Origin: Candidatus Hermodarchaeota archaeon
GTDB lineage: Archaea; Asgardarchaeota; Heimdallarchaeia; Hodarchaeales; Hodarchaeaceae
Assembly (NCBI GenBank): GCA_048886185.1
Contig: JBHLKY010000001.1
Location: 90,001-122,000, forward strand
Length of the DNA stretch: 32,000 bases
Direction of reading: 5' to 3'
Position 1 is the first letter of the stretch; each line of letters begins with the position of its first letter. Positions 2,186 through 31,698 of the stretch are shown piece by piece. A program made the translations under genes and the position numbers. The notes below the pieces were generated by a model that was not told the origin of the DNA, did no database searches, and saw only the letters and a list, made by a program, of their open reading frames with translations.

Positions 2186-4024
2186 TTAGTTCGCAAAGAG
2201 GATTTCATCCCAGGGTTGTCGATAAAGGCCAGCTCTTTGCCTCTTTTGATCAAAAATATGCCCCATCATACCAATGGATCGCCCGAGGACGAATAATCCG
2301 TTGAGTAGCTCGCTTTCAATTACATCCTGTATCTCATCGTCGGTTAAACCGAGATTTAAGAGGAGATCTAGGAAGCAGATTCCGATACACCCATCAACAT
2401 TCAAGATTAGATTGTTACGCTTAGCAGTTGTGATTTTCTCTACTTCTAAAGAAAAGTCAAGATGTGGGTGTTTTTCGAAATGTTTGAAAACAAACTCTTT
2501 CAAAAGCGTGACACGAACATCAGGATTTTGAACAGATTTTATCCGATGGCCAATTCCAGGGATATTAATCCCTACGACGTTTTTCATGTAATCAACAAAG
2601 TCTACTGGCTTCATGTTTTTATCAACAGCCTCTTTGATATATTTAGCTGCATCAGAGATAGCTCCTCCAAACCGTGGGCCTATTGTCAAGATCCCACTCG
2701 AAAGTGAGGACATAAGATCTCTACCAGCTCTGGCAGTTATAATTGCATTGTGTGCGCCGCTTACTGCCGGGCCATGGTCTGAGGTTAGTTTTATCACCAT
2801 TTCAATGTAATCTTGCGCATATTGTGGCAGTTCCTTTTTAAACCAGAGTAATCCTATTGTATAGCCAATCGATTTATTCTCTCTAACAATAGTATCAAGA
2901 CCAACTCCAGAAAACATTGGAACATCGCCTCTTTCATCACTAATAGTACTTACTACGTCAGTTGGTCTCCTAACAATGCCAAGTCTAGAAGCTTGGGCAT
3001 AATCCATTGGTAATTTTGGTGGTTCAAATTCTTTCACAGGTTCGATCTTTCCCTCTGCTTTAAGTTTGTCAAATGTTTCACGAATCTTCTCACCTAGCTC
3101 GTCATATGAGCTTGGTACAATAGCTCCTGCTTCGGCTAATATTCTGTTTTTTGCTTCAGCAGTTTCTAGATCCGTTCCAGCCATAGCTCCAGCATGACCA
3201 AATTGAAGACCTGCAGGTAACAGTTTTGCAGCAGTTCCTATACACCACATAACTAGAGGTTTTTTTATTCGCCCATCCTTCAATGCATCTGCAACGTCTA
3301 TTTCTCCTGTTCCACCTACTTCACCTAAACAAACATGCATCTTAATTTTGGGAATGGACTCAAATCGAAGTAGATGGTCTAAAAGAGTTGAACCTGCATA
3401 TCTATCACCACCGATTGCGATTGCTTCGTAGACTCCATCAGAATTTTCTGCAATCATGAAATTTAGTTCGTTACTCATACCGCCACTTTTTGAGACAAGA
3501 CCGACACTACCAGTCCGATAAAGTTTTGATAACACAATATTCTCAATAGTACCAGCAGTGTTTCCTATCTTAAAAGCACCTGCTTTCATTCCTCCAACTG
3601 TTGCTGGCCCTATTATCATTTTACCTTTTTCTTTGGCTAATTTGATAAGTTCACGGCTTTGACGTTCGGGAATACCTTCAGCTATTACGGCAACTGTTCG
3701 AATTGTATCTGATTCCAAGGCCTCCTTTGATGTTGGATAAGCCGATCGAAAAGAGGAGAAGTTAACCATCACATCAGCATCAGGGTGGTTCTTCAAAGCA
3801 AGTGAAAGTTTTCTATAAATTGGTATGACAATTTCTTTTCCTCCCCAGAAAACTTTATGATAGCCTATCGCTCCTGTTTGACTTGGTCTGATGATAGCTG
3901 CTACAGAGGGGGTATCTCGTTTGCAAACAAAATCAAAATCTAACATTCGTTGGATAGCTGCTGCTTGAAAACCGTAAATAATGGCTTTAGTTTCTTTGCT
4001 AAATAATTCATAATTTTCCTTCAT
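2186..4024 (-). CDS. aclA: ATP-citrate lyase alpha subunit (CoA-binding, phospho-His and citryl-CoA lyase domains)
   Basis: IIGPATVGG, VSKSGGMSNEL, phospho-His loop QFGHAGA, and citryl-CoA lyase motifs DHGPAVSGAHN, GPRFGGA, PGIGHR, LNVDG, LFVLGRSIG. Confidence 0.96.
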   Translation of the reverse strand: MKENYELFSKETKAIIYGFQAAAIQRMLDFDFVCKRDTPSVAAIIRPSQTGAIGYHKVFWGGKEIVIPIYRKLSLALKNHPDADVMVNFSSFRSAYPTSKEALESDTIRTVAVIAEGIPERQSRELIKLAKEKGKMIIGPATVGGMKAGAFKIGNTAGTIENIVLSKLYRTGSVGLVSKSGGMSNELNFMIAENSDGVYEAIAIGGDRYAGSTLLDHLLRFESIPKIKMHVCLGEVGGTGEIDVADALKDGRIKKPLVMWCIGTAAKLLPAGLQFGHAGAMAGTDLETAEAKNRILAEAGAIVPSSYDELGEKIRETFDKLKAEGKIEPVKEFEPPKLPMDYAQASRLGIVRRPTDVVSTISDERGDVPMFSGVGLDTIVRENKSIGYTIGLLWFKKELPQYAQDYIEMVIKLTSDHGPAVSGAHNAIITARAGRDLMSSLSSGILTIGPRFGGAISDAAKYIKEAVDKNMKPVDFVDYMKNVVGINIPGIGHRIKSVQNPDVRVTLLKEFVFKHFEKHPHLDFSLEVEKITTAKRNNLILNVDGCIGICFLDLLLNLGLTDDEIQDVIESELLNGLFVLGRSIGMMGHIFDQKRQRAGLYRQPWDEILFAN

Positions 4025-4036
4025 TGGTGTATCTCC

Positions 4037-5320
4037 TTAATCTATTTCCTTTAGGGCTAGTGGAACAACTCGGGTCATATGAGTATAACGATCATACACT
4101 TCAATGGGTACGCCTATTTCTTCACCTACAGCCCTGATAAGTTCTAATCCTTCTTTTTCGTTTGGTCCACCGCGTCTAACATATATTTTCACGTTTGCTT
4201 TCTTGAGCTTTTCAGCTGAGTTTCTTAGAGCACTGACTATACCTGTAAATGTTGCCTTGACGTCAGTAAAGTTGGCTATTCCGCCTCCTATGATAAGAAT
4301 CTTGGGCTTACCTGTAGGATCAGGTTTTTCTGTTATTAGATCAATGATTGTCTGAGCATAGAGTTCGGTATGCTCTCGGTTTGGATTACCCGAATATTCG
4401 CCATAATTAGCTAGTTTCTTAGCATAACCCATATCTGCAATGGTATCAGTATAAATAACACTGGATCCACCTCCTGCAACCATCGTCCACAGGGGAGCAT
4501 CTCTATCTAGGATTGTTAATTTCAGAGAAGCACCAGTTTGCCCATCTAAATGTACCACAAACTCTTCCTCCTTAGATAACACTTGACCAAATCCTCGGGG
4601 GAATTCAATCGGGTCATCTGGATTACCCCACGTATCTGGATGACGAAATGCCGCTGTATCATCTAGTCGTGCTTTCAGATCAAGGGGAACAATCTTTTTA
4701 TCATCTGTAATAGCAAATGGGTTTATTTCCAAGAAAGCAAAATCTTGGTCTACATAGACTTGGAATAATCCTTTGATGAAAGGGATAAGAACATCGCTGA
4801 GGTCACCAAGATCAGGTAATTTGCTTTTAAGATCAAATAATTTGATATCTGTTCCCAATGGAACATTAACATGAGTTACTTTATCCCAATTTTCTTCTAC
4901 AAAGATACCTCCCTCAAAGCTGAAATGTATAATGTCGTTATCGCGATCAGATGTGAATGCGACATAATATTCTTTTGAATGAGGTATGAATGGTTCTACT
5001 AGGATTCGTTCCAAAATTCCAGTTGTGGTACCAATTGTTTGTTCTTTACCTAGCTTTTCTTTTGCGAAGGTTTTGAGTCCATTTAGATCAGCATCAAGTA
5101 ATAATAGTCCAGCTTTCCCACGTTTACCAAAAAGCTGATCAGGTTTTGCCGCTAGCTTCTCAGTGTTAAGCCATGGGTTAGCAGCAACTAATTTATTCCA
5201 GTCAGTATCAGGAGTAACAACCGCAAGTTTTCCATGATAATTATAATCAGGAAAATATTTTGGTAACTCCGACATAAGTAATTTTTTTGCTGCATATTCA
5301 TATATTGATTTTTGTGCCAT
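4037..5320 (-). CDS. aclB: ATP-citrate lyase beta subunit (ATP-grasp and citrate-binding domains)
   Basis: KPDQLFGKRGKAGL, EINP, DLKARLDDTA, FPRGFG, SLKLTIL, TMVAGGGSSVIYTD, NYGEYSGNP, GGGIANFTDV, VRRGGPN. Confidence 0.96.
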   Translation of the reverse strand: MAQKSIYEYAAKKLLMSELPKYFPDYNYHGKLAVVTPDTDWNKLVAANPWLNTEKLAAKPDQLFGKRGKAGLLLLDADLNGLKTFAKEKLGKEQTIGTTTGILERILVEPFIPHSKEYYVAFTSDRDNDIIHFSFEGGIFVEENWDKVTHVNVPLGTDIKLFDLKSKLPDLGDLSDVLIPFIKGLFQVYVDQDFAFLEINPFAITDDKKIVPLDLKARLDDTAAFRHPDTWGNPDDPIEFPRGFGQVLSKEEEFVVHLDGQTGASLKLTILDRDAPLWTMVAGGGSSVIYTDTIADMGYAKKLANYGEYSGNPNREHTELYAQTIIDLITEKPDPTGKPKILIIGGGIANFTDVKATFTGIVSALRNSAEKLKKANVKIYVRRGGPNEKEGLELIRAVGEEIGVPIEVYDRYTHMTRVVPLALKEID

Positions 5321-5984
5321 ATTCTTTCCTCTCTAAATTGATTGGTAGAAACTTAAATTGAGAGAAGACAGGAAATAACTAATTTTACTTCTCTCTCCTT
5401 CACTAAGTTGTGAAAGAGATGTAGGGTCTAGACATCAAAAATAAACAACTAAATAAGAATTTTATTATAAAAATTGATAAATAATTACATAATGGTGGTT
5501 ACTCAGGATTTCGACTTAAGAGGGAATTATGAGTCTAATGTCTAGTGGATCCTCATTATTTTTTCAGAAGTATCTCTTAACTTAGTAATCATTATTTGGG
5601 AGTATCCTTCCTCCTCCTTCTTATAGTTAATAACCCATGGCGTTATTTTCCGAATTCTTCTTTATTATAAGCAACTAAGTATGATGTACTCCCCCTTCAT
5701 TAATAGGGTATAATCTAATTACTATATTCCTGTGGATCGTTAGGCATAAAATCTGGATAAATAGTAAGTATTTGAACATTAGACTAATAATATTGAATTA
5801 GAATAGCAGCTTCGTATGACTCCTTGCCATATTATATTTTACGGATTTCCTTCTTGTAAACTTATGAGGGGATTCGAAAATCTGGTTATTAAAGAGGATA
5901 ATATTAATTATTTCCCTCTAGGTAAAAAATATTTGTGGTACGATAATGAACCTTTGTTAAATCAAGAAATATTTAATTTAGAGA

Positions 5985-6296
5985 GTGCTATTTGTGAATT
6001 CATGTGTACGACGGTTAGTTTTAGATGTCATGAAACCTCATGAACCTGATATTATTGTCTATGCAAATCATCTGGCAATGGTCGAACAGGAGAAGGGGGA
6101 AGTCACAGCGGTGAATATTGCTGTTATCGAGGTTGATCGTCTAGTTGAGAATATCAAAATTACCATTCAAGGTAATAAATTAGATTATGAGCTTATATCA
6201 AATAAGATTAAAGAATTAGGTGGAGCAATTCATTCGATTGATCTTGTAATTGCGGGAAAATCCATTATTGAAGAAACACCTACTCCCCAAGATTAG
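5985..6296 (+). CDS. DUF211 family protein
   Basis: RRLVLDVMKPHEP...ENIKITIQG...GGAIHSID matches the archaeal DUF211 pattern. The start may be the GTG at 5994. Confidence 0.85.
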   Translation: MLFVNSCVRRLVLDVMKPHEPDIIVYANHLAMVEQEKGEVTAVNIAVIEVDRLVENIKITIQGNKLDYELISNKIKELGGAIHSIDLVIAGKSIIEETPTPQD

Positions 6297-6320
6297 GTAT
6301 ATTGCTTGGAGTTACATTAA

Positions 6321-6905
6321 GTGTCATTTTTTTCGAAATTAAAACTCTATATTCAGATAACAGGAGGATGGGAGATTGCGCGTAGGTATTTTGTAATGAA
6401 TGGATTTGATGGTGTTCTCACTGTCTTTGGGATTGTATTAGGCGCTTTTTTAGTTGGTTATGAATCACCAAAAGAGATAATTGTTCCGGGAATAGGGGCA
6501 TCCTTTGCAATTGGGATTTCTGGGTTCTGGATTGCTTTTCTAACAGAGCAAGCAGAGCAAGAATTAGAGAAAAAAAAGATTGAATCGGCTATCTTCTCCA
6601 ATTTAGATGACACTATGTATTCCAAAGCAGCCCAAGTTGCATCGTTTATCAACTCTTTTGTCGACGGTTTAAGTCCCTTCCTGTTTGGATTTTTAGTTTT
6701 ATCTCCCTTCTTTCTAGTTCAATTTGGGGTTATAATGATAGAAATGGGGTACATTACTTCCTTCATACTGACATTTCTTTTACTATTTGTATTAGGATTC
6801 TTCTTAGGAAGAATTGCAAACCAGAATTGGCTAATATTTGGCTTAAAAACATCAATGGCTGGGATTGTATTGGGGATTTTAATGCTTCTTACTGGGATTG
6901 AATAA
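6321..6905 (+). CDS. VIT1/CCC1-family membrane transporter (TIGR00267-like)
   Basis: ARRYFVMNGFDG, Glu-rich EQAEQELE segment, about 5 hydrophobic helices. Typical partner of DUF211. Confidence 0.82.
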   Translation: MSFFSKLKLYIQITGGWEIARRYFVMNGFDGVLTVFGIVLGAFLVGYESPKEIIVPGIGASFAIGISGFWIAFLTEQAEQELEKKKIESAIFSNLDDTMYSKAAQVASFINSFVDGLSPFLFGFLVLSPFFLVQFGVIMIEMGYITSFILTFLLLFVLGFFLGRIANQNWLIFGLKTSMAGIVLGILMLLTGIE

Positions 6906-7118
6906 AAGTGACATAATTTAGGTTATAACAGAATTTTTTAGATCAATATAAATCTTAAAGGACAATGTATTATTACTCTCGTTTTTACATTCCAAAAAAT
7001 GTCTATTAATTGCAATTGAACTTTAAGTGAATCGTGCATTCCCTTACCTTCTGCAAAACATTTGAGGAAAAATTATTATAAATTCAGAAAATTTATGGGT
7101 GATGTAGGGTTGATAATT

Positions 7119-8468
7119 ATGTCTTACAAGGATATAGCGCTAGCGTATGGGGATGAAATGATTTCCCATTTTATCCCAGCTGATCTGAATGTACGAGTTC
7201 TGGAGCCCGAGAAAGCCAAACGGACCTTTACTGATCTCCAAGCTCGGTTTGATGAAGTCCTCAGAAAGCCTGTCGATTCTCCCCCTCTTGAGGAAATGGT
7301 GAAAAACCGGCAACGACCTCGAATAATGATTCTTGTAGATGATGCAACGAGGCCAAATAAGCATACAAAAGTTCTTCTTCCAATGCTTTTGGAAAAATTA
7401 TTCGAATACGGAGTGAATAAAGAGGATATTCGTATTATGGTAGCAAGTGGTTCTCATAGTCCACCAAGTGATGATTTACTCGAAAATAAGATCCTTGGTT
7501 CCGATATTTACAACGCATGGAAGAATCATGTTTTAATCCATAAGCAAGCAGAAAATTGCAAGAATATTGGGACATCATCATTAGGAACACCTATTGAAGT
7601 TGACATTGATGTTTTAGAATCAGGACTGGTAATTGCTGTCTCTGATAGTGAATATCATTATTTCGCTGGAGTTGCTGGAACCGTTAAGTCATTCTTCCCT
7701 GGATGTGCAGGAAAAGAGACTATTGCCAGAAATCATCCACAAATGTTCGACAAGGATCATGGTTTCAAACCTGCGTGTCGACTTGGGAATACTGCGGGCA
7801 ATCCAGTCATTCAAGATATGATTGAAATGGCTAAAAAGACAAAGAAGATGGTTCCAGTATTTGACATTGATTGTGTACTAGAAGGAGATGAAATCGTCAT
7901 CTTAAACGCAGGTGATATTAACTCGTTACATGACATAATTCTTGAAGATTTGAAGCCCCTTCGTATTGTTGAAGTCGAGGAAGCAGCTGATTTAGTCATT
8001 GTTTCCACAGGAGCATTAAGTATTAACTTATATCAAGGAGGAAAAGGATTTCATGCAGGTTGGAACGCAGTAAAACAAGGTGGAGATGTCTTACTTCTAG
8101 CTCACTGTCCCTTGGGTCACGGAAGTCAGAATTACAAAGATACAATGCTTGAAATAAAAGGGATGGATCTTGATAAAGCCATGGAACATGTGATTAATAC
8201 AAAATGTAGTATTGACAATTTCAAGATTGGGAATCAAAAAGTAGTAGATTTGATTCGTATTTTACTACGATGCACTTGTCACATGATCACCGAGATGGAT
8301 AAAGATGAGCTTGAAGATGTATTTCAAATAAAATACGTTCCACGAACAGGAACTATTCAAGAAAGTCTACGTGCATGGATTCATAAGTATAGGGAGGAAA
8401 AGAATCAAGATCCTTTAATCTACGTGCTCCCAGATGCTGGAAATTATATCGATGTGAAAAATAGGTGA
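7119..8468 (+). CDS. larA: LarA-family nickel-pincer-dependent 2-hydroxyacid racemase
   Basis: DDATRP, ASGSH, EYHYFAGVAGTVKSFFPG, ARNH, LYQGGKG retain the catalytic His and cofactor-binding Lys/His pattern of LarA. ATG at 7119 preferred over the track's TTG at 7062. Substrate unknown. Confidence 0.88.
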   Translation: MSYKDIALAYGDEMISHFIPADLNVRVLEPEKAKRTFTDLQARFDEVLRKPVDSPPLEEMVKNRQRPRIMILVDDATRPNKHTKVLLPMLLEKLFEYGVNKEDIRIMVASGSHSPPSDDLLENKILGSDIYNAWKNHVLIHKQAENCKNIGTSSLGTPIEVDIDVLESGLVIAVSDSEYHYFAGVAGTVKSFFPGCAGKETIARNHPQMFDKDHGFKPACRLGNTAGNPVIQDMIEMAKKTKKMVPVFDIDCVLEGDEIVILNAGDINSLHDIILEDLKPLRIVEVEEAADLVIVSTGALSINLYQGGKGFHAGWNAVKQGGDVLLLAHCPLGHGSQNYKDTMLEIKGMDLDKAMEHVINTKCSIDNFKIGNQKVVDLIRILLRCTCHMITEMDKDELEDVFQIKYVPRTGTIQESLRAWIHKYREEKNQDPLIYVLPDAGNYIDVKNR

Positions 8469-9026: not shown

Positions 9027-9461
9027 ATGGGAATAGAAATCTCTTCTGAAAGTAAACTTACGCGTTTTGTACCTAAACATCAAGCAAGGAGTGCAGTATG
9101 GTGGGTTTTCCAGCGTCTCTCTGGATTTTTCTTATTCTTTTTCCTATTATTCCATTTGCTGGTAAATCACTACTTAACCACACTCCTTCCGACAGATGTA
9201 CGAGAATTCGGTGTAGCTTCTTTTGAGGCAGTTCAATGGAAGATGCAATATACTTACTTAGGGATACCTTTATACCTTGTAATATCTCTCTGTTTTGTCA
9301 CCTTTTTAGTTTTTCATATGTTGAATGGTTTTAGAACAGTTACGCTAGATCTCATAACAAACCAGTCACTTCGAAAGCTTATAGCTTTCTTGTTGGTAAT
9401 CATAGGACTTGTAGCAATTACATACACAATATGGCTTAACCTAACAGTCGCTGGTATTTGA
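9027..9461 (+). CDS. sdhD: Succinate dehydrogenase membrane anchor (SdhD-like)
   Basis: WWVFQRLSG, FHLL, SFEAV, FHMLNG; 3 TM helices; first gene of the sdh operon. Confidence 0.8.
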   Translation: MGIEISSESKLTRFVPKHQARSAVWWVFQRLSGFFLFFFLLFHLLVNHYLTTLLPTDVREFGVASFEAVQWKMQYTYLGIPLYLVISLCFVTFLVFHMLNGFRTVTLDLITNQSLRKLIAFLLVIIGLVAITYTIWLNLTVAGI

Positions 9462-9475
9462 ATAAGGTGGTTTAT

Positions 9476-10009
9476 ATGGTAGAACAAGAAGAAATAATAC
9501 ATGATTCACGAATAGACACGAGTAGTAAAGCAGCAAACTTTCTCCAATGGTTCAATCCTTTTGCCCGTGGAATAGGGATGTGGGCGTGGTTACTTCAACG
9601 GATTACAGGTCTTCTTCTAATTATGTATGTAATTTTTCATTTTGGTATGATATTTACCCTAGCAGTGGACTTTATCTGGGGTTTAAATGCTGGTCAATTC
9701 TATAATAGTCTTATTCATTGGGTCAATTCACCAATTCTTCCTGATATCGCTCCTCTAAAATTCGGAGAAATCCAAATCAATATTCAAAATATAATTTCTA
9801 TTGGATATGGGATTGATATTGGAGTCATTGGGATTCTGGTATATCATGGGTTTAACGGGATTAGGGTTGTCCTGTTTGACTTAGGAATTGGTATTCATCG
9901 TCAGAAAACAATCTTCTGGATAATGGTTGTTTTAGGGGTTGTGACTTGGTTTTTAGCTTTACTATTAATTCTAATTGTTCCAGAAATTGTAATTTTATCA
10001 GGTGAGTGA
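9476..10009 (+). CDS. sdhC: Succinate dehydrogenase cytochrome b subunit (SdhC-like)
   Basis: GMWAWLLQRITG, IFHF, YHGFNGIRVVLFD. AGGTGG at 9465-9470 supports the ATG at 9476. Confidence 0.83.
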   Translation: MVEQEEIIHDSRIDTSSKAANFLQWFNPFARGIGMWAWLLQRITGLLLIMYVIFHFGMIFTLAVDFIWGLNAGQFYNSLIHWVNSPILPDIAPLKFGEIQINIQNIISIGYGIDIGVIGILVYHGFNGIRVVLFDLGIGIHRQKTIFWIMVVLGVVTWFLALLLILIVPEIVILSGE

Positions 10010-10014
10010 AAAAT

Positions 10015-11736
10015 ATGAAGATACACAGACATTCAATACTTGTCGTGGGGTCAGGTCTTGCAGGGATGCGTGCAGCAGTAGCAGCAAGAGAGAATGGAGC
10101 CGATGTGGCTGTTATTTCAATTTGTCAGCCTGTAAGAAGTCATTCTGTTGCAGCTCAAGGTGGAATTAATGCACCTTTAGGCAATAATCCAGAATCAAAA
10201 GATGATTCAGTCGAGCGACATGCCTTTGATACTGTAAAAGGTTCAGATTATCTAGCTGACCAACCAGCTGTAATCAAGATGATTGGATTAGCAAAAGAAA
10301 CAATTTATGAATTAGAACACTGGGGATGTCCTTTCTCTAGGTTTGAAGATGGGAGTATTGGCCAAAGACCATTTGGGGGCGCTGGTTATCCTAGAACTTG
10401 TTTCGCTGCTGACCGTACAGGCCACTCAGTACTTCATGTGGCTTGGGAAAGATCAGTAAAACTAGGTGTTCCTGTGTATGAAGATCGTCTTGTTGTCCGA
10501 CTCGTAGTAAAAGATAAAAAAGTAAATGGTCTTATTGTTTATAACTTTAGAACAGGAAACCTTGAAATGTGGGAGTGTGATGCAGCAATTTTTGCCACTG
10601 GTGGGGCTGGACAAATATATGGGGCAACTTCAAACGCCCTAGCTTGTAATGGTTTTGGTATGGCTGTAGCATATTGGGCAGGTATTGCTCTGAAAGATAT
10701 GGAGTTCATTCAATTTCATCCAACGACATTATACGGAAATAATGTTCTGATTTCCGAGGCAGCGCGAGGAGAAGGTGGTTACTTACGAAATAACAAGGGT
10801 GAGCGTTTCATGGAAAAGTATGCAGCAGAAAAAATGGAGCTTGCTCCTCGAGACATTGTTTCAAGGTCAATCTATCAAGAAGTGCTTGAAGGTCGTGGAT
10901 ATGGAACAAAAGAGAATGGCTATGTCCACCTCGATTTGACACACCTTCCAGCTGAACAAATACTTGAACGTCTTCCCCAGATTCGTGATCTTGCTTTACG
11001 TTTCACTGGTCAAGATATGGTAAAAGATCCAATTCCAGTGCAACCAGGTTTCCATTATGCGATGGGAGGCATTCATGTAGATGAAACCACAGCCAGTAAA
11101 GAAGTCGAAGGATTTTTCGCTTGTGGTGAATGTTCATGTGTTTCAGTACATGGTGCAAATCGTCTAGGTGGGAATTCTCTTTTGGAGTGTGCTGTTTTTG
11201 GAAAAGTTGCAGGTTTGGAGGCAGCTAAATATGTAAACGGAGTAACTGTTTCTCCTAACGCGAAATATATCATTTTTGAAGAACTACAAAAGCAACAAGA
11301 AAAACACAATTTTTGGTTCAGTGGTGAAGGTAAGAATGATCCTTTCAAGATCATGGAAGAGATGAGAGATACAATGAAATTGAAAGTGTTTGTTTATCGG
11401 GAAGAAGGCTCATTGACAGAGGCTCTCAATAAAATTAGAGAACTTAAGAAACGCTTTAAAGAAGGTGTTTATCTCAAATCTAAAGTTAAAGAGTACAATC
11501 GGGAATTGGAGTGGATTTTAGCTCTCGAAGGCATGTTGGATCTTTCCGAAGTGATTTGTATGGGTGCTCTTCAACGAAAAGAATGTCGTGGGAGCCATTG
11601 GCGATTGGATCATCTTGGTAGAGACGATAAGAACTTCTTGAAGCATACTTTGGCAAACTATATTGATGGTGAAGCAAAATTGAGCTATTTAGACGCTATT
11701 ATAACAAAATGGCAACCGGAGGAACGAAAGTACTAA
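10015..11736 (+). CDS. sdhA: Succinate dehydrogenase/fumarate reductase flavoprotein
   Basis: VVGSGLAG, covalent-FAD motif RSHSVAAQGG, QFHPT, EAARGEGG, LAPRD, HYAMGG, HGANRLGGNSL. GGTGA at 10001-10005 supports the ATG at 10015. Confidence 0.97.
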   Translation: MKIHRHSILVVGSGLAGMRAAVAARENGADVAVISICQPVRSHSVAAQGGINAPLGNNPESKDDSVERHAFDTVKGSDYLADQPAVIKMIGLAKETIYELEHWGCPFSRFEDGSIGQRPFGGAGYPRTCFAADRTGHSVLHVAWERSVKLGVPVYEDRLVVRLVVKDKKVNGLIVYNFRTGNLEMWECDAAIFATGGAGQIYGATSNALACNGFGMAVAYWAGIALKDMEFIQFHPTTLYGNNVLISEAARGEGGYLRNNKGERFMEKYAAEKMELAPRDIVSRSIYQEVLEGRGYGTKENGYVHLDLTHLPAEQILERLPQIRDLALRFTGQDMVKDPIPVQPGFHYAMGGIHVDETTASKEVEGFFACGECSCVSVHGANRLGGNSLLECAVFGKVAGLEAAKYVNGVTVSPNAKYIIFEELQKQQEKHNFWFSGEGKNDPFKIMEEMRDTMKLKVFVYREEGSLTEALNKIRELKKRFKEGVYLKSKVKEYNRELEWILALEGMLDLSEVICMGALQRKECRGSHWRLDHLGRDDKNFLKHTLANYIDGEAKLSYLDAIITKWQPEERKY

Positions 11737-11746
11737 GGTGATAAAA

Positions 11747-12478
11747 ATGAGTGAAACAAAGAAAATTACTTTCAAGATCAAACGTTTTAATCCAGCAAGG
11801 GATATCGAACCCTATTGGGATATATTTGAGCTAGATTGCGATGAAGGTACAACAATTTTGATTGCAATTCAAGAACTCATTGCTAAACAAGATGGTTCAA
11901 TTGCTATGAGATATAATTGCCGTGCTGGTGTTTGTGGCTCATGTGCTGTTCTAGTTAATAAGAAATATCGCTTAGCCTGTGAGACTCTTGTTCTTCAGCT
12001 TAAAAAAGATGTGATCAAATTAGAACCCTTACCTTTCTTTCCTGTTATCAAAGACCTAGTTGTTGATATGGATCCATTCTATGAGAAAGTTCTTGCTATC
12101 GATCCTTTCCTAATACGGGATCACTCTAAAGATCCCGAGACTGAACTCATCCAAAGTCCTGAAGACTTTAAAATCATCGAAGAAGCAACTAAATGTATTT
12201 TATGTGGTGCATGTCATAGTTCATGTGTATCAGTATGGACTGACAAGAATTATTTAGGCCCTGGAGCACTATTGAAAGCATTCCGGTTTACTAAAGATAC
12301 TAGAGACGAAAACACCAAAAGTCGTGTCAAACGAGTGTCTGCTGAAGATGGAGTTTTCCGTTGTCATACAGCCTTCAATTGCGTCGAGGCTTGTCCGAAA
12401 GAACTTAATCCGACTGAAGCTATTCAGGCTTTGAAACGACAGGCAGCAAAACAAGCTCTTAAATTTTGGTCTCGTTAA
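11747..12478 (+). CDS. sdhB: Succinate dehydrogenase iron-sulfur subunit
   Basis: CRAGVCGSC...C (2Fe-2S), CILCGACHSSC (4Fe-4S), CHTAFNCVEACP (3Fe-4S type). AGGTGA upstream of the ATG at 11747. Confidence 0.96.
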   Translation: MSETKKITFKIKRFNPARDIEPYWDIFELDCDEGTTILIAIQELIAKQDGSIAMRYNCRAGVCGSCAVLVNKKYRLACETLVLQLKKDVIKLEPLPFFPVIKDLVVDMDPFYEKVLAIDPFLIRDHSKDPETELIQSPEDFKIIEEATKCILCGACHSSCVSVWTDKNYLGPGALLKAFRFTKDTRDENTKSRVKRVSAEDGVFRCHTAFNCVEACPKELNPTEAIQALKRQAAKQALKFWSR

Positions 12479-12729
12479 AAACATTCATAAGGCTACAAAT
12501 GGCAAGAGATATTGTCATTAATCCTTTTCCCTCTTTTTATGAAAATTTTGATAAAAAATTTATTCTACATTAGAAATGTGGATTTTTTATGAATTTTTAG
12601 AAGTTAAAACTAGATAATTCTTAAAGCTATATTGTATTCATAAGTTAAAAGGAATAGAATTTTTATTATTACAAAAAAATTCATTTTATCAGTTTTTCAC
12701 ATACCTATAGTTTGAGAATTGTGATTACT

Positions 12730-13626
12730 ATGGCTGAAACGTTTGATAACACGATAATTGAGAATACAGCTGTTAAGTTGCTCAAGTTTGCTGCAACTCA
12801 ACTGCCTAATGATGTTTCCGAAGCATTGAAAACCATGTACAATCAAGAAACGAAGCCTACAAGTAAAGCTGCTTTAAAAACGATTGTAGACAACTTTACC
12901 ATTGCTAATGAGACATCTACTCCCATGTGTCAAGACACAGGGATACATATCTACTATGTGAATATTGGCGAAAAATTTCCCAAAGTTGAGGGTATTCAAG
13001 AAACACTTAGGAAGGCATCGGCTCGTGCAACCAAAGAAGTGCCTCTAAGACCAAATGCGGTCAATCCAATTGTTGGTGGAAATTCTGGGGACAATACAGG
13101 TAATCATATTCCGTTTATAAATTTTGATTTTATTCCTGGAGCAGATTACTTGGAGATTACTGCTTTTCCCAAAGGTGGTGGATCAGAAAATATGTGTGCC
13201 TTGGGAATGCTTAAACCAGGTCAAGGTATTAATGGCGTGAAAAAATTCGTAATTGACACCATCATGAATGCAGGTGGTCAACCCTGCCCACCAGTTGTTG
13301 TAGGAGTTGGTATAGGTGGTGGTGCAGACATTGCACTTAAACTCGGGAAAAAACAATTACTACGTCCACTTGGGGAAAGACATCATGATCCTGAGATAGC
13401 CAAACTTGAGGAGGATCTATTGAAGGCAATTAACATGACTGGCATTGGTTCTATGGGACTAGGCGGTGATGTTTCTACAGCTTTAGATGTAAAAATTGAC
13501 TACGCTCATAGACATCCTGCATCTCTTCCTGCAGCAGTAGTTATTCAATGTTGGGCTGCTAGAAGAGCCACAGCTCGAATTTATCCTGATGAACGAGTAG
13601 AGTTCTTAACTCATAAGGAGGCATAA
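12730..13626 (+). CDS. fumA: Class I (Fe-S) fumarate hydratase alpha subunit
   Basis: PMCQDTG, PKGGGSEN, GQPCPP, CWAAR. Tartrate dehydratase is in the same family, but context favours fumarase. Confidence 0.88.
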   Translation: MAETFDNTIIENTAVKLLKFAATQLPNDVSEALKTMYNQETKPTSKAALKTIVDNFTIANETSTPMCQDTGIHIYYVNIGEKFPKVEGIQETLRKASARATKEVPLRPNAVNPIVGGNSGDNTGNHIPFINFDFIPGADYLEITAFPKGGGSENMCALGMLKPGQGINGVKKFVIDTIMNAGGQPCPPVVVGVGIGGGADIALKLGKKQLLRPLGERHHDPEIAKLEEDLLKAINMTGIGSMGLGGDVSTALDVKIDYAHRHPASLPAAVVIQCWAARRATARIYPDERVEFLTHKEA

Positions 13627-13628
13627 TT

Positions 13629-14234
13629 ATGGCTGAATTTCATTTTACGACCCCTATTTCAAAAGAAGATGTACAAAAAGTTAAGATAGGAGATGTAATC
13701 TACATTTCGGGGACTGTTTTTACAGCCCGCGATGAAGCTCACGAGAGAGCGTTACACCTTGCAAAAAAAGGTGAAAAAATGCCCATTGATTTCGAAGGCT
13801 TAGCTGTTTATCATTGTGGCCCAGTAGTGAGACAAGTAGGAGATGAATGGGAAATTGTTGCAGCAGGACCTACAACCTCAACGCGAATGGATCTATTTGA
13901 GGATGAATTCATTAAAACATTCAATGTGAACGTTATTATCGGTAAGGGTGGTATGGGGGATAGAACAGCTAAAGCTATGAGGGAATATAAAGCAATCTAT
14001 ACTGCCTTCGTGGGTGGTGCTGCAGTAGTAGCTGCTAAAGGGATTAAACGGGTAAAAGAGGTTCATTGGTTAGATCTTGGAACTCCTGAATGCTTATGGG
14101 TTCTAGAAGTTGATAAATTTGGGCCTTTAATCGTTGGTATCGACTCAAACGGTGATAGTCTTTTTAAAGATGTAGCTCTGAAAGCTCAAGAAAATTTAGG
14201 TAAAATAGGCGAATTTTTAGGTATTACCTTTTAA
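13629..14234 (+). CDS. fumB: Class I fumarate hydratase beta subunit
   Basis: TARDEAH, YHCGP, GPTTSTRM, GKGGM. GGAGG ribosome-binding site. Confidence 0.88.
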   Translation: MAEFHFTTPISKEDVQKVKIGDVIYISGTVFTARDEAHERALHLAKKGEKMPIDFEGLAVYHCGPVVRQVGDEWEIVAAGPTTSTRMDLFEDEFIKTFNVNVIIGKGGMGDRTAKAMREYKAIYTAFVGGAAVVAAKGIKRVKEVHWLDLGTPECLWVLEVDKFGPLIVGIDSNGDSLFKDVALKAQENLGKIGEFLGITF

Positions 14235-15450: not shown

Positions 15451-16317
15451 ATGATGTACATTAGCGAAGATTCAAAAGTCGTAGTTCAAGGCATTACTGG
15501 CAATCAAGGACAGTTCCATACCCAATTAATGCTTGAGTATGGTACTAAGGTTGTTGCTGGAGTGACTCCCAAAAAGGGTGGGCAAGAAGTTCTTGGTATT
15601 TCGGTATATAATACTGTCCAAGAGGCAGTTAGAGAGCATGGAGTCGATACAAGTATTATTTTTGTTCCCGCTCGGTTCACCTATGGCGCTGTTATGGAAA
15701 GTTTGGGTGCAGGAATTAATATGACATGTATTATAAGCGAAGGTGTCCCTGTTTTTGATATGGTTCGCCTTGTGGAGACGGCTAAAGCAAGAAAATTAAA
15801 CATAATTGGCCCAAATACTCCAGGAATGTTAATCCCTGATAAAATTAAATTAGGAATTATGCCAAGTGATATGGCCCACTTTGGTAATGTGGCAGTCATT
15901 GCTAAGAGCGGGACGTTGTCATATGAAATCACAAAAGCCCTTGGTAACGCCAATATTGGAGTTTCTGCATATATTGGAATTGGAGGGGATCCAGTTCGTG
16001 GAAAAACTTTAACAGAAGCTTTTGATTATTATGTTAAGGACATTGGGACTAGAGTAATCGTATTAATCGGTGAAATAGGTGGTGATGACGAAGAGAAAGT
16101 TGCTCAGTATATCAAAGAACAAAAGGTTGACAAACCTGTTGTAGCATATATTGCAGGTAAAAGTGCTCCTGAAGGTAAGCGAATGGGTCATGCCGGTGCT
16201 ATAATCTCAGGAAATGTTGGAACAGCACAAGGAAAAATAGATGCTCTTGAAGATGTTGGTGCCAAAGTCACTGATACTCCTTGGGAGATTCCCAAAGCAG
16301 TTAAAACCTACTTATAA
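15451..16317 (+). CDS. sucD: Succinyl-CoA synthetase alpha subunit
   Basis: VQGITG, GVTPKKGG, IIGPNTPG, SGTLSYE, GIGGDP, GEIGG and phospho-His loop RMGHAGAI. Confidence 0.94.
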   Translation: MMYISEDSKVVVQGITGNQGQFHTQLMLEYGTKVVAGVTPKKGGQEVLGISVYNTVQEAVREHGVDTSIIFVPARFTYGAVMESLGAGINMTCIISEGVPVFDMVRLVETAKARKLNIIGPNTPGMLIPDKIKLGIMPSDMAHFGNVAVIAKSGTLSYEITKALGNANIGVSAYIGIGGDPVRGKTLTEAFDYYVKDIGTRVIVLIGEIGGDDEEKVAQYIKEQKVDKPVVAYIAGKSAPEGKRMGHAGAIISGNVGTAQGKIDALEDVGAKVTDTPWEIPKAVKTYL

Positions 16318-19017: not shown

Positions 19018-21984
19018 TTATGGCTTCTCTAAACCATAAGCATCTCGAAGAACTTGAGTAGGATGATATACCTCTTTATTAACATTGAGGAGTTGTAGCT
19101 TACATGTTGGACAATCGGTGACTAGAACATCAATATCGTCTCTTTTTCCTTCAGGGTATAGACTTCTTTCAGCAATCATTTGACCGTATTTATAGTTCTT
19201 TGACTTAAAACCCCAGGAACCTAATTGACCACAGCATTCTGTTTTAAGTGGAACTAGATCAATACTTTTGACATTCTTTAACATATTTACTGATATTCCT
19301 TTGCTTCCTGTACTGAGAAGATGACAGGGCTCATGATAGCCAAAGCGAAGCTTCTTTTCTGTTGTTTCATTGAAGTTTGTGTCCAAACTACCCTCTTTTT
19401 TCAGTTTTAAAATGTAATCGGAAAAGAAATAGGTATTGTCTTTTACTAACTTTGAATCATCAGTACCGACGAGAGTTTCGTGTAACTCATCTTTAAGAGT
19501 TGCATAACAAGAGCTACATTGAGTTACTACATCATATCCTTGTTTAACATATTCAGCAAAGGTGTCTGTATTCTTTTCTCCCTTTTTTCTGGCAACTTGG
19601 CCGAGTCCATTAGAAAGTAACGGAATCCCACAACAGTATTGCTTATTTGGCACAACAACTTCAATGTTGTTCTTCTCAAGAACTTGAACCTCTGCGATAG
19701 CAATATCTGTGTTTTCTGTATAATTAGCGAAACATCCGTGGAAAATTGCGACTTTCTTTGTTGGATTTATTGGGGGTGGATTAGTTTTTCGATATTTTTT
19801 GAACCATTTTTGGAATGTATTTCTACGGAATTTTGGAAAGTTTGAATCATGATGAACTCCTCCAAAGAGTTGCATCAAATACTTATTTGGTCCCCAAAGT
19901 CCTATATTTGATAGAGGTGCAAAAGTACTTCCTAATCGTGCAATCATCTCATAATTACCAGTGAAATAATGCCCTCTTGGAATTTTTCCAATATAAGGTA
20001 ACTTTGAGTTTTTATAATGCATGATTTTTGCATCAAAAATTGTTTTAGGTATATTAACTTCAGATGGACAATCAACAACGCACATCATGCATCCTGCACA
20101 GTCTTCTAACACTTGTCTGGCTTCTTTTGAATATAAAATGTTATAATCTAGTTGACCTGACATAATACCTCTCATTAGGTTTGCTCTAGCCCTAGGTGAT
20201 GCCAACTCACCAGTACTTGTCTTTTTTGCTCGATAAATCGGACAATCTCTTTGAGGTAGTAATTCTACAGTGCATTTGCCACATCCGTGACATGATTCGA
20301 TCACATCTTCGAATCCCCACTCCTCTGGCCAAAGTAAGTTTGTTTTCATATCTAAAGTTGCGTAATCTCCCCCAAAACGAAGATTCTTTATTATAAGATC
20401 TTCTTCATCAGTAATCTTCTTACCTGGGTTGAGGATTCCTTTTGGATCAAAGAGGGACTTAATTTTCTTGAAAACCTCATAAACTTCATCTCCATACATC
20501 TTTTCGATAAAGTTGACTCGATCAAGGCCATCATTATGTTCACCTGAAACAGCTCCTCCTATACTGATAACATAAGAATTTACTTCTTCTGCTACAGCTT
20601 TTATGATTTCTAAATCTTTTACGTCTTTTGTATTTACAAAAGGTCGAGTATGAACAAGTCCTTTGGATGCATGACCGTATATAGCTGCTTGAATTCCGTG
20701 TTTTGGGAACACTTCTTCTTGTAACTTTGTCATATAGTGTCCAAGGTATTCAAGGGGAACTGTTTGGTCTTCAACAAACGCCATAATTCGACGAGGCTCC
20801 CGAACTTTCTGGAGTAATGGTACAGCATCCTTTCTGACTTTCCAAAGGTTTGCTTGTTCAACAGGATCATCAGAAAACCTCATGTCTTTAGCGAGTTTTT
20901 CTTGTTCCATAATCAGTTTTCTTGTTTTTTCAACTTTTTCAGCTCGGATTTTTTCATCTTGTTCGTCAAATTCAATGTAAAGGATATTATCCACACCTTC
21001 AGGAATAAACTGCTTTAATGAAGGATCCATTTCAACTCCAAAATCAAGTACGCTTTTACCAAGAACTTCAATAGCAGCTACTCCTATCTGATTAACAATT
21101 AACTCTACAGCTCTTCCTGAATCAGCAAGATTGTCAAAATCCATGACCACTAATGTTAAATTTTTCGGTTTGTCAATAAACTTGAGTTTGGCTTCTACAA
21201 CAACTCCTAATGTTGCTTCCGATCCTAAAAATGCTTTTGATAAGTCAACCATGTTATCTGTTATCATATCCTTTATATTATAACCAGTTACATTCATCTT
21301 AACCTTAGGCCATTTCTCCGAAATAAGATTTTGCACCTTTGGATTATCTATTAATTCTACTACTGATTTATACAGCTTTGCTTCCAGTGTATCCTTAGTA
21401 ATAATTGTATTATATTCATCTGAGCCGATTTCAATTGGCCTTGTTGTAATTTCTTCCCCGTTACTTAAAATCACAGTTAATCCTTCAACAAAATCAGCCA
21501 TATATCCATACTTTGCTGCATGCGCTCCTGATGAATTTGTTCCTATCATACCTCCAATAGAAGCATAATTTTCTGAAGAATTATCAACATAAACGATTTT
21601 CCCGATCTTTGCTAATTCATGATTCAAATTTCCACATATTACTCCAGGTTGGACCATTGTATATGATTTTTCCTTGTTAATTTCAAGAATGCTGTTCATG
21701 TACCTTCTAAAGGCAAGCACAATTCCGGGTCCTAAACTTGAACCTGTTAATCCAGATCCAGCTCCTCTTGCGTGAATTGGGATCCCTTTCTCGCGAGCAT
21801 ATCGGATTACGTTCTTTACATCTTCTTTATCTTTCGGATAAACCACACACGAAGGGACAATTCTATAAACACTAGCATCAGTGCTAAAAAAGTTACGAGT
21901 AATTTCATCACTTGCTACATCTCCTTTCACCCTCGTCTTTAGTTCCATTTCAATCATTTTTGGTTCGAGCTTATTCGTAGGCAT
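19018..21984 (-). CDS. FAD-linked, Fe-S-containing D-2-hydroxyacid dehydrogenase (GlcD+GlcF fusion, YdiJ/Dld-II-like)
   Basis: STDASVY, RGAGSGLTG, SIGGMIGTN, GSEATLG, VEDQTVP, HASKGLVHTRP, SGEHNDG, LNPGK; ferredoxin motifs CHGCGKC and CAGCMMCVVDCP; two CCG domains. Confidence 0.87.
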   Translation of the reverse strand: MPTNKLEPKMIEMELKTRVKGDVASDEITRNFFSTDASVYRIVPSCVVYPKDKEDVKNVIRYAREKGIPIHARGAGSGLTGSSLGPGIVLAFRRYMNSILEINKEKSYTMVQPGVICGNLNHELAKIGKIVYVDNSSENYASIGGMIGTNSSGAHAAKYGYMADFVEGLTVILSNGEEITTRPIEIGSDEYNTIITKDTLEAKLYKSVVELIDNPKVQNLISEKWPKVKMNVTGYNIKDMITDNMVDLSKAFLGSEATLGVVVEAKLKFIDKPKNLTLVVMDFDNLADSGRAVELIVNQIGVAAIEVLGKSVLDFGVEMDPSLKQFIPEGVDNILYIEFDEQDEKIRAEKVEKTRKLIMEQEKLAKDMRFSDDPVEQANLWKVRKDAVPLLQKVREPRRIMAFVEDQTVPLEYLGHYMTKLQEEVFPKHGIQAAIYGHASKGLVHTRPFVNTKDVKDLEIIKAVAEEVNSYVISIGGAVSGEHNDGLDRVNFIEKMYGDEVYEVFKKIKSLFDPKGILNPGKKITDEEDLIIKNLRFGGDYATLDMKTNLLWPEEWGFEDVIESCHGCGKCTVELLPQRDCPIYRAKKTSTGELASPRARANLMRGIMSGQLDYNILYSKEARQVLEDCAGCMMCVVDCPSEVNIPKTIFDAKIMHYKNSKLPYIGKIPRGHYFTGNYEMIARLGSTFAPLSNIGLWGPNKYLMQLFGGVHHDSNFPKFRRNTFQKWFKKYRKTNPPPINPTKKVAIFHGCFANYTENTDIAIAEVQVLEKNNIEVVVPNKQYCCGIPLLSNGLGQVARKKGEKNTDTFAEYVKQGYDVVTQCSSCYATLKDELHETLVGTDDSKLVKDNTYFFSDYILKLKKEGSLDTNFNETTEKKLRFGYHEPCHLLSTGSKGISVNMLKNVKSIDLVPLKTECCGQLGSWGFKSKNYKYGQMIAERSLYPEGKRDDIDVLVTDCPTCKLQLLNVNKEVYHPTQVLRDAYGLEKP

Positions 21985-22289
21985 AGTTATTCACTTTCTT
22001 TTTTTCAGAAAAAGCCATGGACTGATAATTATTATTCATACTAAGGTTTTGAACTTCCATTAAAAACTCTAACGCTCAGAAACAAGGAAATTGTCATTAA
22101 CTATTGTTAAAGAGATAAAAATACAAAATAACCATATTATGTCCGAAGAAATATTAAGTAATAATATTGAATTAAAAACTATTGACTTTGAACCAAAGAG
22201 TAAAAGGATTAATATTAATTAACACAGAGATATTCTTAAGTATTAATTAGTTTACAAATAGTCTATCTATTTCTTTAAGGTGGTTTTTA

Positions 22290-30716: not shown

Positions 30717-30723
30717 GGTGATT

Positions 30724-31698
30724 ATGTTGAATTCACGTCCACGTGTTTTATGTACTCATAGAATTCCAGAAGCAGGGTTGAAAATCCTTGAGAAATCGAT
30801 GCAAGTGACAATTTTAGATGAAAATCTTCCCATTAAAGCTCAGTTGCAGGAATTGCTCCCTTTGACTAATTTTCTTATAACACTTCTTTCTGTGGAGATA
30901 TCAGAAAGCTTGATGTGTTTAGCTCCATCGCTTAAAGGAATTGCGAATTATGCAGTTGGATATAATAATATTGATATCGTTGCAGCTAGAAAAAGAAACA
31001 TTTTGGTTACAAACACCCCAGATGTGTTAACAAACGCGACTGCTGATCTTGTATGGGGATTAATCCTTGCAGTAACACGTAGAATTATTGAGGGGGATAA
31101 AATATGTCGTGACAATATTTTTCCTGGCTGGTTACCAAAGTTTTTACTTGGATTTGAAATCACTGGAAAAACTCTAGGAGTAATTGGTTTGGGACGGATA
31201 GGAGCTGCAGTAGCAAAACGAGCTGTTGGGTTTGATATGCAGATTCTCTACCATTCACGAACACGGAAACGTGATATTGAGCAAAAATATGGATTAATCT
31301 TCAGAAAATCGTTAGAAGAAGTACTTAAAGAATCTGATATAATCAGCCTCAATATTCCATACACACAAGAAACCCATCATTTGATTTCAAAAAGAGAATT
31401 ATCATTAATGAAATCTTCTGCATATCTTATCAACACTGCCCGTGGTAGAGTTGTTAATGAAAAAGATCTTATAGATGCATTAAAAACCAAGGTTATTGCG
31501 GGAGCTGGACTTGATGTATTTTATAATGAGCCTTCAATACCCTCAGAATTGAGTGAATTACAGAATGTTGTACTAACTCCTCATATTGGATCTGCGACAA
31601 CTCAAACCCGTGATGCTATGGCACGAATGGTAGCAGATAATATTCTAGCCATGAATGAAGGAAATCAACCGCCCAATCTTATCCCTGAAATGTTATAA
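30724..31698 (+). CDS. gyaR: D-isomer-specific 2-hydroxyacid dehydrogenase (glyoxylate reductase-like)
   Basis: AVGYNNID, NTPDVLTNATAD, GVIGLGRIG, LINTARG, AGLDVFYNEP, TPHIGSAT. AGGTGA upstream of the ATG at 30724. Confidence 0.85.
   Translation: MLNSRPRVLCTHRIPEAGLKILEKSMQVTILDENLPIKAQLQELLPLTNFLITLLSVEISESLMCLAPSLKGIANYAVGYNNIDIVAARKRNILVTNTPDVLTNATADLVWGLILAVTRRIIEGDKICRDNIFPGWLPKFLLGFEITGKTLGVIGLGRIGAAVAKRAVGFDMQILYHSRTRKRDIEQKYGLIFRKSLEEVLKESDIISLNIPYTQETHHLISKRELSLMKSSAYLINTARGRVVNEKDLIDALKTKVIAGAGLDVFYNEPSIPSELSELQNVVLTPHIGSATTQTRDAMARMVADNILAMNEGNQPPNLIPEML

Follow-up and report, generated by a model that had tools for sequence, protein, structure and literature searches.

The subject of the present analysis is larAH, a gene at positions 7119..8468 (+) of a 32,000-nucleotide stretch of the genome of Candidatus Hermodarchaeota archaeon (assembly GCA_048886185.1, contig JBHLKY010000001.1, positions 90,001 to 122,000; G000:C1:90001-122000 in our numbering). 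This whole stretch is referred to as the window, and the host genome (G000; 4.84 Mb in 75 contigs) is 96% complete. From gene integrity, residue conservation, the presence of cofactor genes, clade membership, synteny and phyletic patterns we infer that LarAH is an active racemase dependent on nickel-pincer nucleotide (NPN) as its cofactor, that it belongs to an uncharacterised clade of LarA, and that it converts malate, or a closely similar C4 2-hydroxy-dicarboxylate, between the D- and L-forms, a reading which, taken as a whole, is given an about even chance of being correct. A first-pass annotation of the window had proposed that this racemase, together with a flavin-dependent D-2-hydroxyacid dehydrogenase encoded in the same cluster, could close the tricarboxylic acid (TCA) cycle without malate dehydrogenase (MDH); that proposal is weakened by MDH candidates elsewhere in the genome, by a linkage to TCA genes that is found in one genus only, and by the lack of co-occurrence of the racemase with its proposed partner.

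LarAH is predicted to be an active NPN-dependent racemase

The larAH open reading frame (ORF) spans positions 7062-8468 on the plus strand, and initiation at the ATG at 7119 generates a protein of 449 aa, a length shared by its orthologues of 91% identity. The protein matches the Pfam domains Lar_N (147 bits) and LarA_C (42 bits), in both cases above the cut-off, and its best match in the PDB, extending over the full length, is Mar2 (6D6Z, E 4.6e-45), followed by lactate racemases with E-values of about 1e-30. On the basis of these matches LarAH is classified as a member of the LarA superfamily, its fold being settled by the sequence matches to solved LarA-family structures.

Residues D72, R75, H108, H174, K184, H200, Y294, Q295 and K298 of LarA from Lactiplantibacillus plantarum are all identical in the alignment with LarAH. 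Across 13 diverse clade members, H113, H180, K190, H206, Y305, Q306 and K309 (LarAH numbering) are invariant, and the conserved motifs comprise DDxTRP, GxH, E-Y-H-Y-F, T-V-K, N-H, Y-Q-x-G-K and I-G-N-Q-K. A genome search for the cofactor genes larB, larC and larE, which the first-pass annotation had put forward as a check, retrieved all three in a single larC-larB-larE operon located 84 kb downstream of larAH (C1:205679-208401), with larE at 276 bits, larB at 236 bits and larC at 139 + 89 bits, all above the NCBIfam cut-offs. Because the catalytic and cofactor residues of LarA are kept and the larC-larB-larE genes score above their cut-offs, LarAH is very probably enzymatically active and NPN-dependent. 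Following the family mechanism, catalysis would involve a proton-coupled hydride transfer with His113 and His180 as the bases; the nickel-pincer cofactor, a product of LarB, LarC and LarE, would be held by Lys190 and His206.

A second LarA homologue is encoded in the host genome (G000:C10:123991-125280; L011:760-2049, minus strand). It falls into the LarAH18 family ('putative hexonate epimerase'), with a score of 641 bits against a cut-off of 500 bits, and its gene adjoins one for an FGGY sugar kinase; two predicted NPN-dependent enzymes, LarAH and this LarAH18-family protein, are encoded in the genome.

LarAH carries a malate-type signature

Placement of LarAH within a LarA subfamily was based on the ranking of hidden Markov models, the ranking of PDB matches, and published signature positions. 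That the LarA family includes malate racemases as well as 2-hydroxyglutarate (2-HG) racemases, as stated in the first-pass annotation, is correct (PMC7583248, PMC11770544), and the positions that predict function are the equivalents of F175, F176, D356, W358 and T359 of LarA1 (PMC7583248, PMC11770544). Malate racemases display 'GHK' and 2-HG racemases 'NQT' according to Desguin 2020 (PMC7583248), the corresponding description in Urdiain-Arraiza 2024 being H/Q + K for the former and a final T for the latter (PMC11770544). Furthermore, the loop of 2-HG racemases usually reads Y-F, the residues found in lactate racemases are F, F, W and E/Q, and the loop positions after the catalytic His are described as variable among malate racemases (PMC7583248, PMC11770544).

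At the equivalents of LarA1 positions 175/176/356/358/359, LarAH contains Y, F, G, Q and K, and it thus displays, at positions 356/358/359, the signature G...[H/Q]-K of the malate racemases (LarAH5, LarAH6, LarAH62); the I-G-N-Q-K motif shows no variation across Hodarchaeales, Thorarchaeota and Anaerolineales. The NCBIfam models with the highest scores are the malate racemases LarAH6 (255 bits) and LarAH5 (233 bits), followed by LarAH10 (221 bits) and LarA (199 bits). The next-nearest families outside the LarAH clade mostly carry HYF / YQAQK / LGGHKA, representing the classical malate-racemase signature, and families with a 2-HG-racemase-like signature are more distant from LarAH than these malate-signature families. 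LarAH is therefore assigned, with moderate confidence, as a probable malate (C4-dicarboxylate) racemase.

The same residues bear on an alternative role in the repair of 2-HG, in which promiscuous enzymes of the MDH or lactate dehydrogenase (LDH) type would generate L-2-HG, LarAH would convert this to D-2-HG, and a YdiJ-like enzyme would return it to 2-oxoglutarate. The combination of a Y-F loop and Gln at position 358 is also typical of 2-HG racemases (PMC11770544), and the small Gly preceding the catalytic Lys could accommodate a C5 substrate. Position 359 is, however, an invariant Lys where 2-HG racemases have Thr, and position 356 is Gly rather than Asn (PMC7583248, PMC11770544), to which the greater distance of the 2-HG-signature families is to be added. 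Taken together with the evidence on the partner enzyme discussed below, such a repair function for LarAH is considered unlikely.

A search of 1.84 billion representative proteins delimited a compact clade of 12 clusters scoring 310-405 bits, the next clusters reaching at most 217 bits, and this clade is distributed over Heimdallarchaeia, Thorarchaeota and Anaerolineales. Proteins that are 80-91% identical to LarAH originate from metagenome-assembled genomes named Hodarchaeales, Hodarchaeota, Heimdallarchaeota or Promethearchaeota. Among the 83 genomes of the class, the families of which are designated here by f numbers, LarAH is present in f1 (19/21), f2 (2/2), f4 (27/31) and f7 (12/12), with no occurrence in f5 (0/3) or f6 (0/12). 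One member on a long branch (L024; G050:C9:267435-268778) is 41-44% identical to every other member with the I-G-N-Q-K motif being kept; it adjoins acn-aclBA-idh in a genome (G050) in which the ATP-citrate lyase (ACL) is 78% identical to that of the window, and either rapid divergence or replacement in place may explain this sequence.

In one genus larAH is located in a TCA/ACL supercluster

The 25 large ORFs of the window were scanned against Pfam, with exclusion of those overlapping larger genes. The gene order commences with the C-terminal end of an aconitase, followed by an Iso_dh-family dehydrogenase and by the ACL genes on the minus strand (2186..5320, with aclA at 2186-4024 and aclB at 4037-5320; Pfam Citrate_bind, Citrate_synth_N, Ligase_CoA and Citrate_synt). 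Next are paired DUF211 and VIT1 (iron-transporter family) genes (5985..6905, +), which separate aclB from larAH, a 213-bp region upstream of larAH (6906..7118, from the ORF map and sequence), larAH itself, sdhC-sdhD-sdhA-sdhB for succinate dehydrogenase / fumarate reductase (SDH; 9027..12478, +), and a two-subunit Fe-S (class I) fumarase (12712..14234, +; Pfam Fumerase and Fumerase_C), an enzyme which makes and uses L-malate. These are followed by sucCD, an unknown gene, a CoA-transferase gene, the gene for a 988-aa dehydrogenase of YdiJ-like architecture (19018..21984, -) that is described below, an acetyl-CoA hydrolase/transferase-GNAT fusion, and further genes. The earlier description of an intact LarA homologue positioned between the ACL and SDH operons is hence confirmed, aclBA being on one side and sdhCDAB on the other. 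A gap of 558 bp separates larAH from sdhC, and larAH appears to be a solitary gene. This supercluster covers, by the Pfam scan of the window ORFs, every TCA step other than that between malate and oxaloacetate.

Gene context was compared across 80 larAH loci from named genomes, 15 being from the host genus and 65 from outside it. Most of the 15 genus loci have larAH flanked by TCA genes, as against 0/65 of the others (Heimdallarchaeia, Thorarchaeota, Anaerolineales); the synteny with sdh and acl, which the first-pass annotation had put forward as a check, is seen within the genus and not beyond it. In 11 genus genomes larAH is situated within about 2 kb of aclB, usually in divergent orientation with a gap of ~300 bp (divergent at ~300 bp in G058, G065, G066, G067 and G051), and in seven genus genomes, namely G000, G058, G067, G066, G065, G051 and G048, it is within about 3 kb of sdhA. 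The linkage in the genus holds down to about 75% protein identity, and the 41%-identical LarAH of G050, which has the same motif, also adjoins acn-aclBA-idh. Placement of the gene in the TCA/ACL supercluster supports a TCA-related substrate in this genus. Within the class aclB is confined to the genus (g1), where it is found in 19/21 genomes, as opposed to 0/62 elsewhere.

This pattern also bears on the possibility that LarAH acts on another anionic 2-hydroxyacid (sulfolactate, tartrate or 2-hydroxysuccinamate) in a housekeeping role, and that its position in the TCA cluster is a genus-specific accident of genome history. Consistent with this, the gene context varies by lineage without any TCA link outside the genus, the Km of Mar1 for malate is very high and a different native substrate is suspected by its authors (PMC7583248), and malate racemases also epimerise tartrate (PMC11770544). 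Such a substrate is nevertheless judged improbable, considering that the genus linkage is kept down to the identities given above, that it extends to the divergent member in G050, and that no genes of a sulfolactate or tartrate pathway were seen beside any clade member.

Several observations weigh against malate as the substrate of LarAH. The protein scores below all NCBIfam LarAH-model cut-offs, which are 460-540 bits (255/500 bits for LarAH6 and 233/462 bits for LarAH5), and is therefore assigned to no curated equivalog. The loop after the catalytic His reads Y-F in LarAH and Y-K in Mar2, and the catalytic Lys is preceded by Gly in LarAH and by Gln in Mar2, differences which could widen or alter the pocket. 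The clade is compact and uncharacterised, and gene context speaks for malate in one lineage only: at 0/65 of the loci outside the genus are TCA, MDH, malic-enzyme, YdiJ-like or lar genes found within 10 kb of larAH, and the neighbours in those genomes are a Rieske gene with purS-purQ-purL, Ham1 with ribosomal genes, feoA-feoB with cysS, or radical-SAM and NTP-transferase genes. Finally, no D-malate source or sink was identified in the organism.

Some of these neighbourhoods recur with little variation. In Thorarchaeota (L089 + 14 further loci) larAH is almost always divergent from feoA-feoB, encoding iron uptake, and convergent with cysS; in another Heimdallarchaeia family (L017-L022, L032, L033) it immediately precedes purS-purQ-purL, in the same orientation, even though the surroundings are rearranged; and a small Rieske protein gene is its divergent neighbour in other Heimdallarchaeia. 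A metal-related link of larAH is possible, given the feoAB, DUF211-VIT1 and Rieske neighbours. The DUF211-VIT1 pair is missing from the position between aclB and larAH in G058 (L028) and G056 (L014), and in the window it represents a local insertion.

Other features of the locus concern intergenic sequences and further genes. An exact 16-nt repeat, TAATAATATTGAATTA, is present at 5786-5801 (aclB/DUF211 intergenic region) and at 22160-22175, the latter copy being located in the divergent promoter region between the FAD/Fe-S dehydrogenase gene and the acetyl-CoA hydrolase gene, with a partial copy at 874. A 12-mer upstream of both larAH and sdhC was considered as a shared cis-element and rejected, its occurrence being close to chance expectation; neither this 12-mer nor the 16-mer was found in the relatives G058, G056 and G050. 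The window also encodes an NAD-dependent D-isomer-specific 2-hydroxyacid dehydrogenase of the glyoxylate-reductase-like type (30718..31698, +; Pfam 2-Hacid_dh_C), which scores 367 bits against the NCBIfam glyoxylate reductase cut-off of 455 bits, is one of four such paralogues in the genome, and is a possible source of D-2-hydroxyacids. The host genome is without a canonical citrate synthase, the one other Citrate_synt match being a domain in a 720-aa ORF (C9:105800-106804).

The proposed partner dehydrogenase

The protein encoded at 19018-21984 is composed of FAD_binding_4, FAD-oxidase_C, 4Fe-4S dicluster and two CCG domains (Pfam), and will be referred to as the FAD/Fe-S/CCG dehydrogenase, from its flavin adenine dinucleotide (FAD), iron-sulfur (Fe-S) and CCG domains. 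Its gene begins 2.7 kb beyond the end of sucD at 16317, in agreement with the distance of within 3 kb reported by the first-pass annotation, and is located 10.5 kb from larAH on the opposite strand and in a different transcription unit. The architecture is that of YdiJ, and among NCBIfam models that of the D-2-HG dehydrogenase YdiJ (NF049975) ranks first, with a score of 382 bits that is below the cut-off of 1350 bits. The best PDB matches of the FAD domain are glycolate oxidase (9QGZ), LctD (7QH2, E 2.4e-38) and D-LDH (8JDC), the D-2-HG dehydrogenase (D2HGDH) 6LPN being a weaker match. When the FAD domain was used in a tblastn search a single other relative was detected in the genome, with weak similarity, and a Pfam FAD-oxidase_C search of the genome gave a second clear match on contig C11 (116 bits). 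The protein is the best-scoring GlcD-type dehydrogenase of the genome and the sole one found to be fused to Fe-S/CCG domains.

Biochemical precedents for the substrate point in two directions: the YdiJ enzymes of E. coli and Pantoea accept D-2-HG exclusively, D-malate not being a substrate (PMC9504171), whereas the Pseudomonas and human D2HGDHs oxidise D-malate (PMC9504171, PMC10034468), so that the earlier statement that some FAD-linked D2HGDHs accept D-malate is correct. In addition, GlcD (COG0277) and GlpC (COG0247) genes recur beside LarAH groups (PMC7583248).

The distribution of the two genes was compared across the class. The FAD/Fe-S/CCG dehydrogenase is present in f1 (17/21), f4 (4/31), f6 (2/12) and f7 (0/12); LarAH is retained where the dehydrogenase is absent or rare, in f7 (12/12 vs 0/12) and in f4 (27/31 vs 4/31), and co-occurrence of the two is thus not observed. 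The distribution of GlcD-type proteins in general was discarded as evidence, since these are near-ubiquitous in the class and hence uninformative. Both genes are part of the supercluster in G000, G058, G065 and G066, and in G070, from another family, larAH is 3.9 kb from a YdiJ-like gene. In G065 the dehydrogenase gene is present as a tandem duplicate (G065:C41:191504-197732) with 86% + 76% identity to the window copy; the fumarase match of the same genome contains one in-frame TGA.

For 2-HG repair, the YdiJ architecture of the partner and its best NCBIfam model are favourable, but the score is far below the cut-off of that model and, outside the genus, no co-occurrence of the racemase with the YdiJ-like gene is observed.

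Malate dehydrogenase candidates are located outside the window

The first-pass annotation stated that the cluster has no MDH, which holds for the window, where none of the 25 large ORFs matches Ldh_1, Ldh_2 or Mqo by Pfam, and does not hold for the genome. The search for mdh and mqo that it had suggested showed that Mqo is absent from the host genome, and it recovered MDH candidates of both the Ldh_1 and the Ldh_2 type; a malic enzyme is also present.

The single Ldh_1-family gene (G000:C2:175662-176621; L001:973-1935, minus strand) encodes a protein that scores 383 bits with the L-LDH model and that exceeds the cut-off of the MDH subfamily (292 vs 283 bits), its nearest matches overall being bacterial L-LDHs (2ZQY, E 4e-91). 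The substrate loop of the protein is AGRKRKPGDTRLDL, as opposed to AGAPQKPGETRLDL in LDHs, which places an Arg at the classical Gln102 position, within the very basic loop GRKRKPG; this Arg is kept in both genus orthologues that were aligned (n=2). Arg102 is a determinant of MDH specificity, and a Q102R swap converts LDH to MDH specificity. The Ldh_1 protein could, judged by this residue, represent a natural LDH-to-MDH switch. Its gene is patchily distributed in the genus (10/21 genomes). The Ldh_2 family is represented by two genes, one of which (C7:125972-126988) scores 399 bits and has as its best solved relatives proteins deposited as malate dehydrogenases, from Pyrococcus horikoshii (1V9N, E 9e-98) and Entamoeba (3I0P). 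Two ordinary MDH candidates, the Ldh_1 protein with Arg102 and the Ldh_2 protein, are thus predicted outside the window, neither of them in a TCA gene context.

Across the class, Ldh_1 is found in f1 (10/21), f2 (2/2), f5 (2/3) and f6 (11/12) and is missing from f4 (0/31) and f7 (0/12), and the high-scoring Ldh_2 type is found in f1 (15/21), f3 (1/1), f4 (26/31) and f7 (12/12), with f5 and f6 having low-scoring forms only; the family comparison of LarAH, Ldh_1 and Ldh_2 amounts to about four independent contrasts and is not to be taken as statistics. The two types are nearly complementary, with Ldh_1 in f5, f6 and f2, Ldh_2 in f4, f7 and f3, and f1 being mixed. The complementarity between LarAH and Ldh_1 (f4 and f7 vs f5 and f6) was considered as support for a bypass and rejected in view of the high-scoring Ldh_2 in 26/31 genomes of f4 and 12/12 of f7: LarAH and Ldh_1 are anti-correlated because the two MDH types replace each other, and LarAH follows the Ldh_2 lineages. 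The Ldh_2 family has promiscuous archaeal members, and the tracking of the Ldh_2 enzyme by the racemase at family level is a further point in favour of 2-HG repair.

Both MDH types are missing in 11/83 class genomes, all of which are at most 91% complete, and 0 genomes that are at least 92% complete lack both. The genomes G056 and G050 have ACL and LarAH without Ldh_1, Ldh_2 or malic enzyme, G056 also having a fumarase; these were rejected as evidence for an MDH-free cycle, their completeness being 70% and 87%, respectively. G056 corresponds to bin272, which was filed as 'complete' and yet is without ribosomal-protein genes (PMC10833476).

Discussion

The preferred reading is that larAH, as a racemase gene of D-/L-malate or a close C4 analogue, would have been recruited into the TCA supercluster in a Hodarchaeales genus, in a position divergent from aclBA and beside the sdh and fumarase genes, where its product would link the L-malate of the cycle with a pool of D-malate. 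The D-malate could originate from side reactions of D-specific 2-hydroxyacid dehydrogenases or from external uptake.

A further route deserves consideration, namely one parallel to MDH, in which LarAH would convert L-malate to D-malate and the FAD/Fe-S/CCG dehydrogenase would oxidise the latter to oxaloacetate with a membrane (quinone-type) or thiol-type acceptor, in an NAD-independent manner and in place of Mqo. This would fit a supercluster in which the malate/oxaloacetate step is the one that is not covered, in a genome that is without Mqo and has both its MDH candidates outside a TCA context. The sharing of the supercluster by the two genes in four genomes, their proximity in G070, the standing of the dehydrogenase as the top GlcD-type protein of the genome and the only Fe-S/CCG fusion found there (next to the second FAD-oxidase_C match on C11), the recurrence of GlcD/GlpC genes beside LarAH groups (PMC7583248) and the use of D-malate by some D2HGDHs (PMC10034468, PMC9504171) point in the same direction. 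Against it stand the two MDH candidates of the genome, the presence of at least one MDH type in every class genome that is at least 92% complete, and the absence of the dehydrogenase where the racemase is kept. The FAD domain, moreover, resembles glycolate oxidase and D-LDH more closely than D2HGDH, characterised YdiJ of the same architecture does not oxidise D-malate (PMC9504171), and the genes are distant from each other, on opposite strands and in separate transcription units. A parallel route of this kind is doubtful, at best on a par with the two alternative roles discussed above. Of the findings that bear on a bypass in the strict sense, the MDH candidates in the genome speak against it, yet larBCE are present and the TCA linkage exists in the genus; the evidence leans against it, as a bypass is not required and is unsupported by co-occurrence or wider synteny, and LarAH is unlikely to be an MDH replacement because the genome has two MDH candidates elsewhere.

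Among archaeal groups LarA homologues are most prevalent in Asgard, where they are found in 87.5% of genomes (PMC11770544), and a full-text literature search on lactate racemase and Asgard yielded only this survey and no assayed Asgard LarA homologue. The clade newly defined here, comprising Heimdallarchaeia, Thorarchaeota and Anaerolineales, is well conserved and has a malate-type signature, and one Hodarchaeales genus has incorporated the gene into a TCA/ACL supercluster that is near-complete. If LarAH is a malate racemase, D-malate would be a regular metabolite in these organisms, and LarAH would have to be added to the reconstructions of Asgard central metabolism that are used in reasoning on the origin of eukaryotes. 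An MDH bypass, if true, would constitute a genuine pathway novelty, being a nickel-pincer-dependent variant of the TCA cycle in the archaea most closely related to eukaryotes.

Pairs of a racemase and an FAD-dependent D-LDH serve lactate use, for example in the lct operon of Acetobacterium woodii, the LctD of which is PDB 7QH2. The bypass would follow the same logic, with a racemase feeding a D-specific flavoenzyme; unlike in the lactate pairs, larAH and the FAD/Fe-S gene do not form one operon and show no co-occurrence across families, and malate takes the place of lactate as the proposed substrate.

When compared with LarA of L. plantarum (5HUQ, 6C1W), LarAH has the same Lar_N + LarA_C organisation, catalytic histidines and cofactor ligands, whereas F175, F176, W358 and T359, the hydrophobic residues that set the specificity of LarA, are replaced by Y, F, Q and K, and the NCBIfam LarA score is 199 vs 460 bits. 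LarAH7 (Deferribacter desulfuricans) and LarAH32 (Geobacter metallireducens) have Y-F and Gln358 as in LarAH (PMC7583248, PMC11770544), and the predicted substrate of LarAH would, like theirs, be a dicarboxylic 2-hydroxyacid tied to the TCA cycle; they differ in having N...Q-T where LarAH has G...Q-K, this comparison being made by published signature positions only. In relation to Mar2 / LarAH6 of Thermoanaerobacterium thermosaccharolyticum (6D6Z, 7S91; PMC7583248), LarAH has Y-F and not Y-K, Gly and not Gln before the catalytic Lys, and Gln and not His at 358, and it is part of a distinct clade that is limited to Asgard archaea and Anaerolineales; its score with the LarAH6 model is 255 bits against a cut-off of 500 bits. 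The two proteins are alike in their NPN-binding and catalytic residues, and both have a Lys at the presumed second-carboxylate position as part of a G-x-[H/Q]-K motif.

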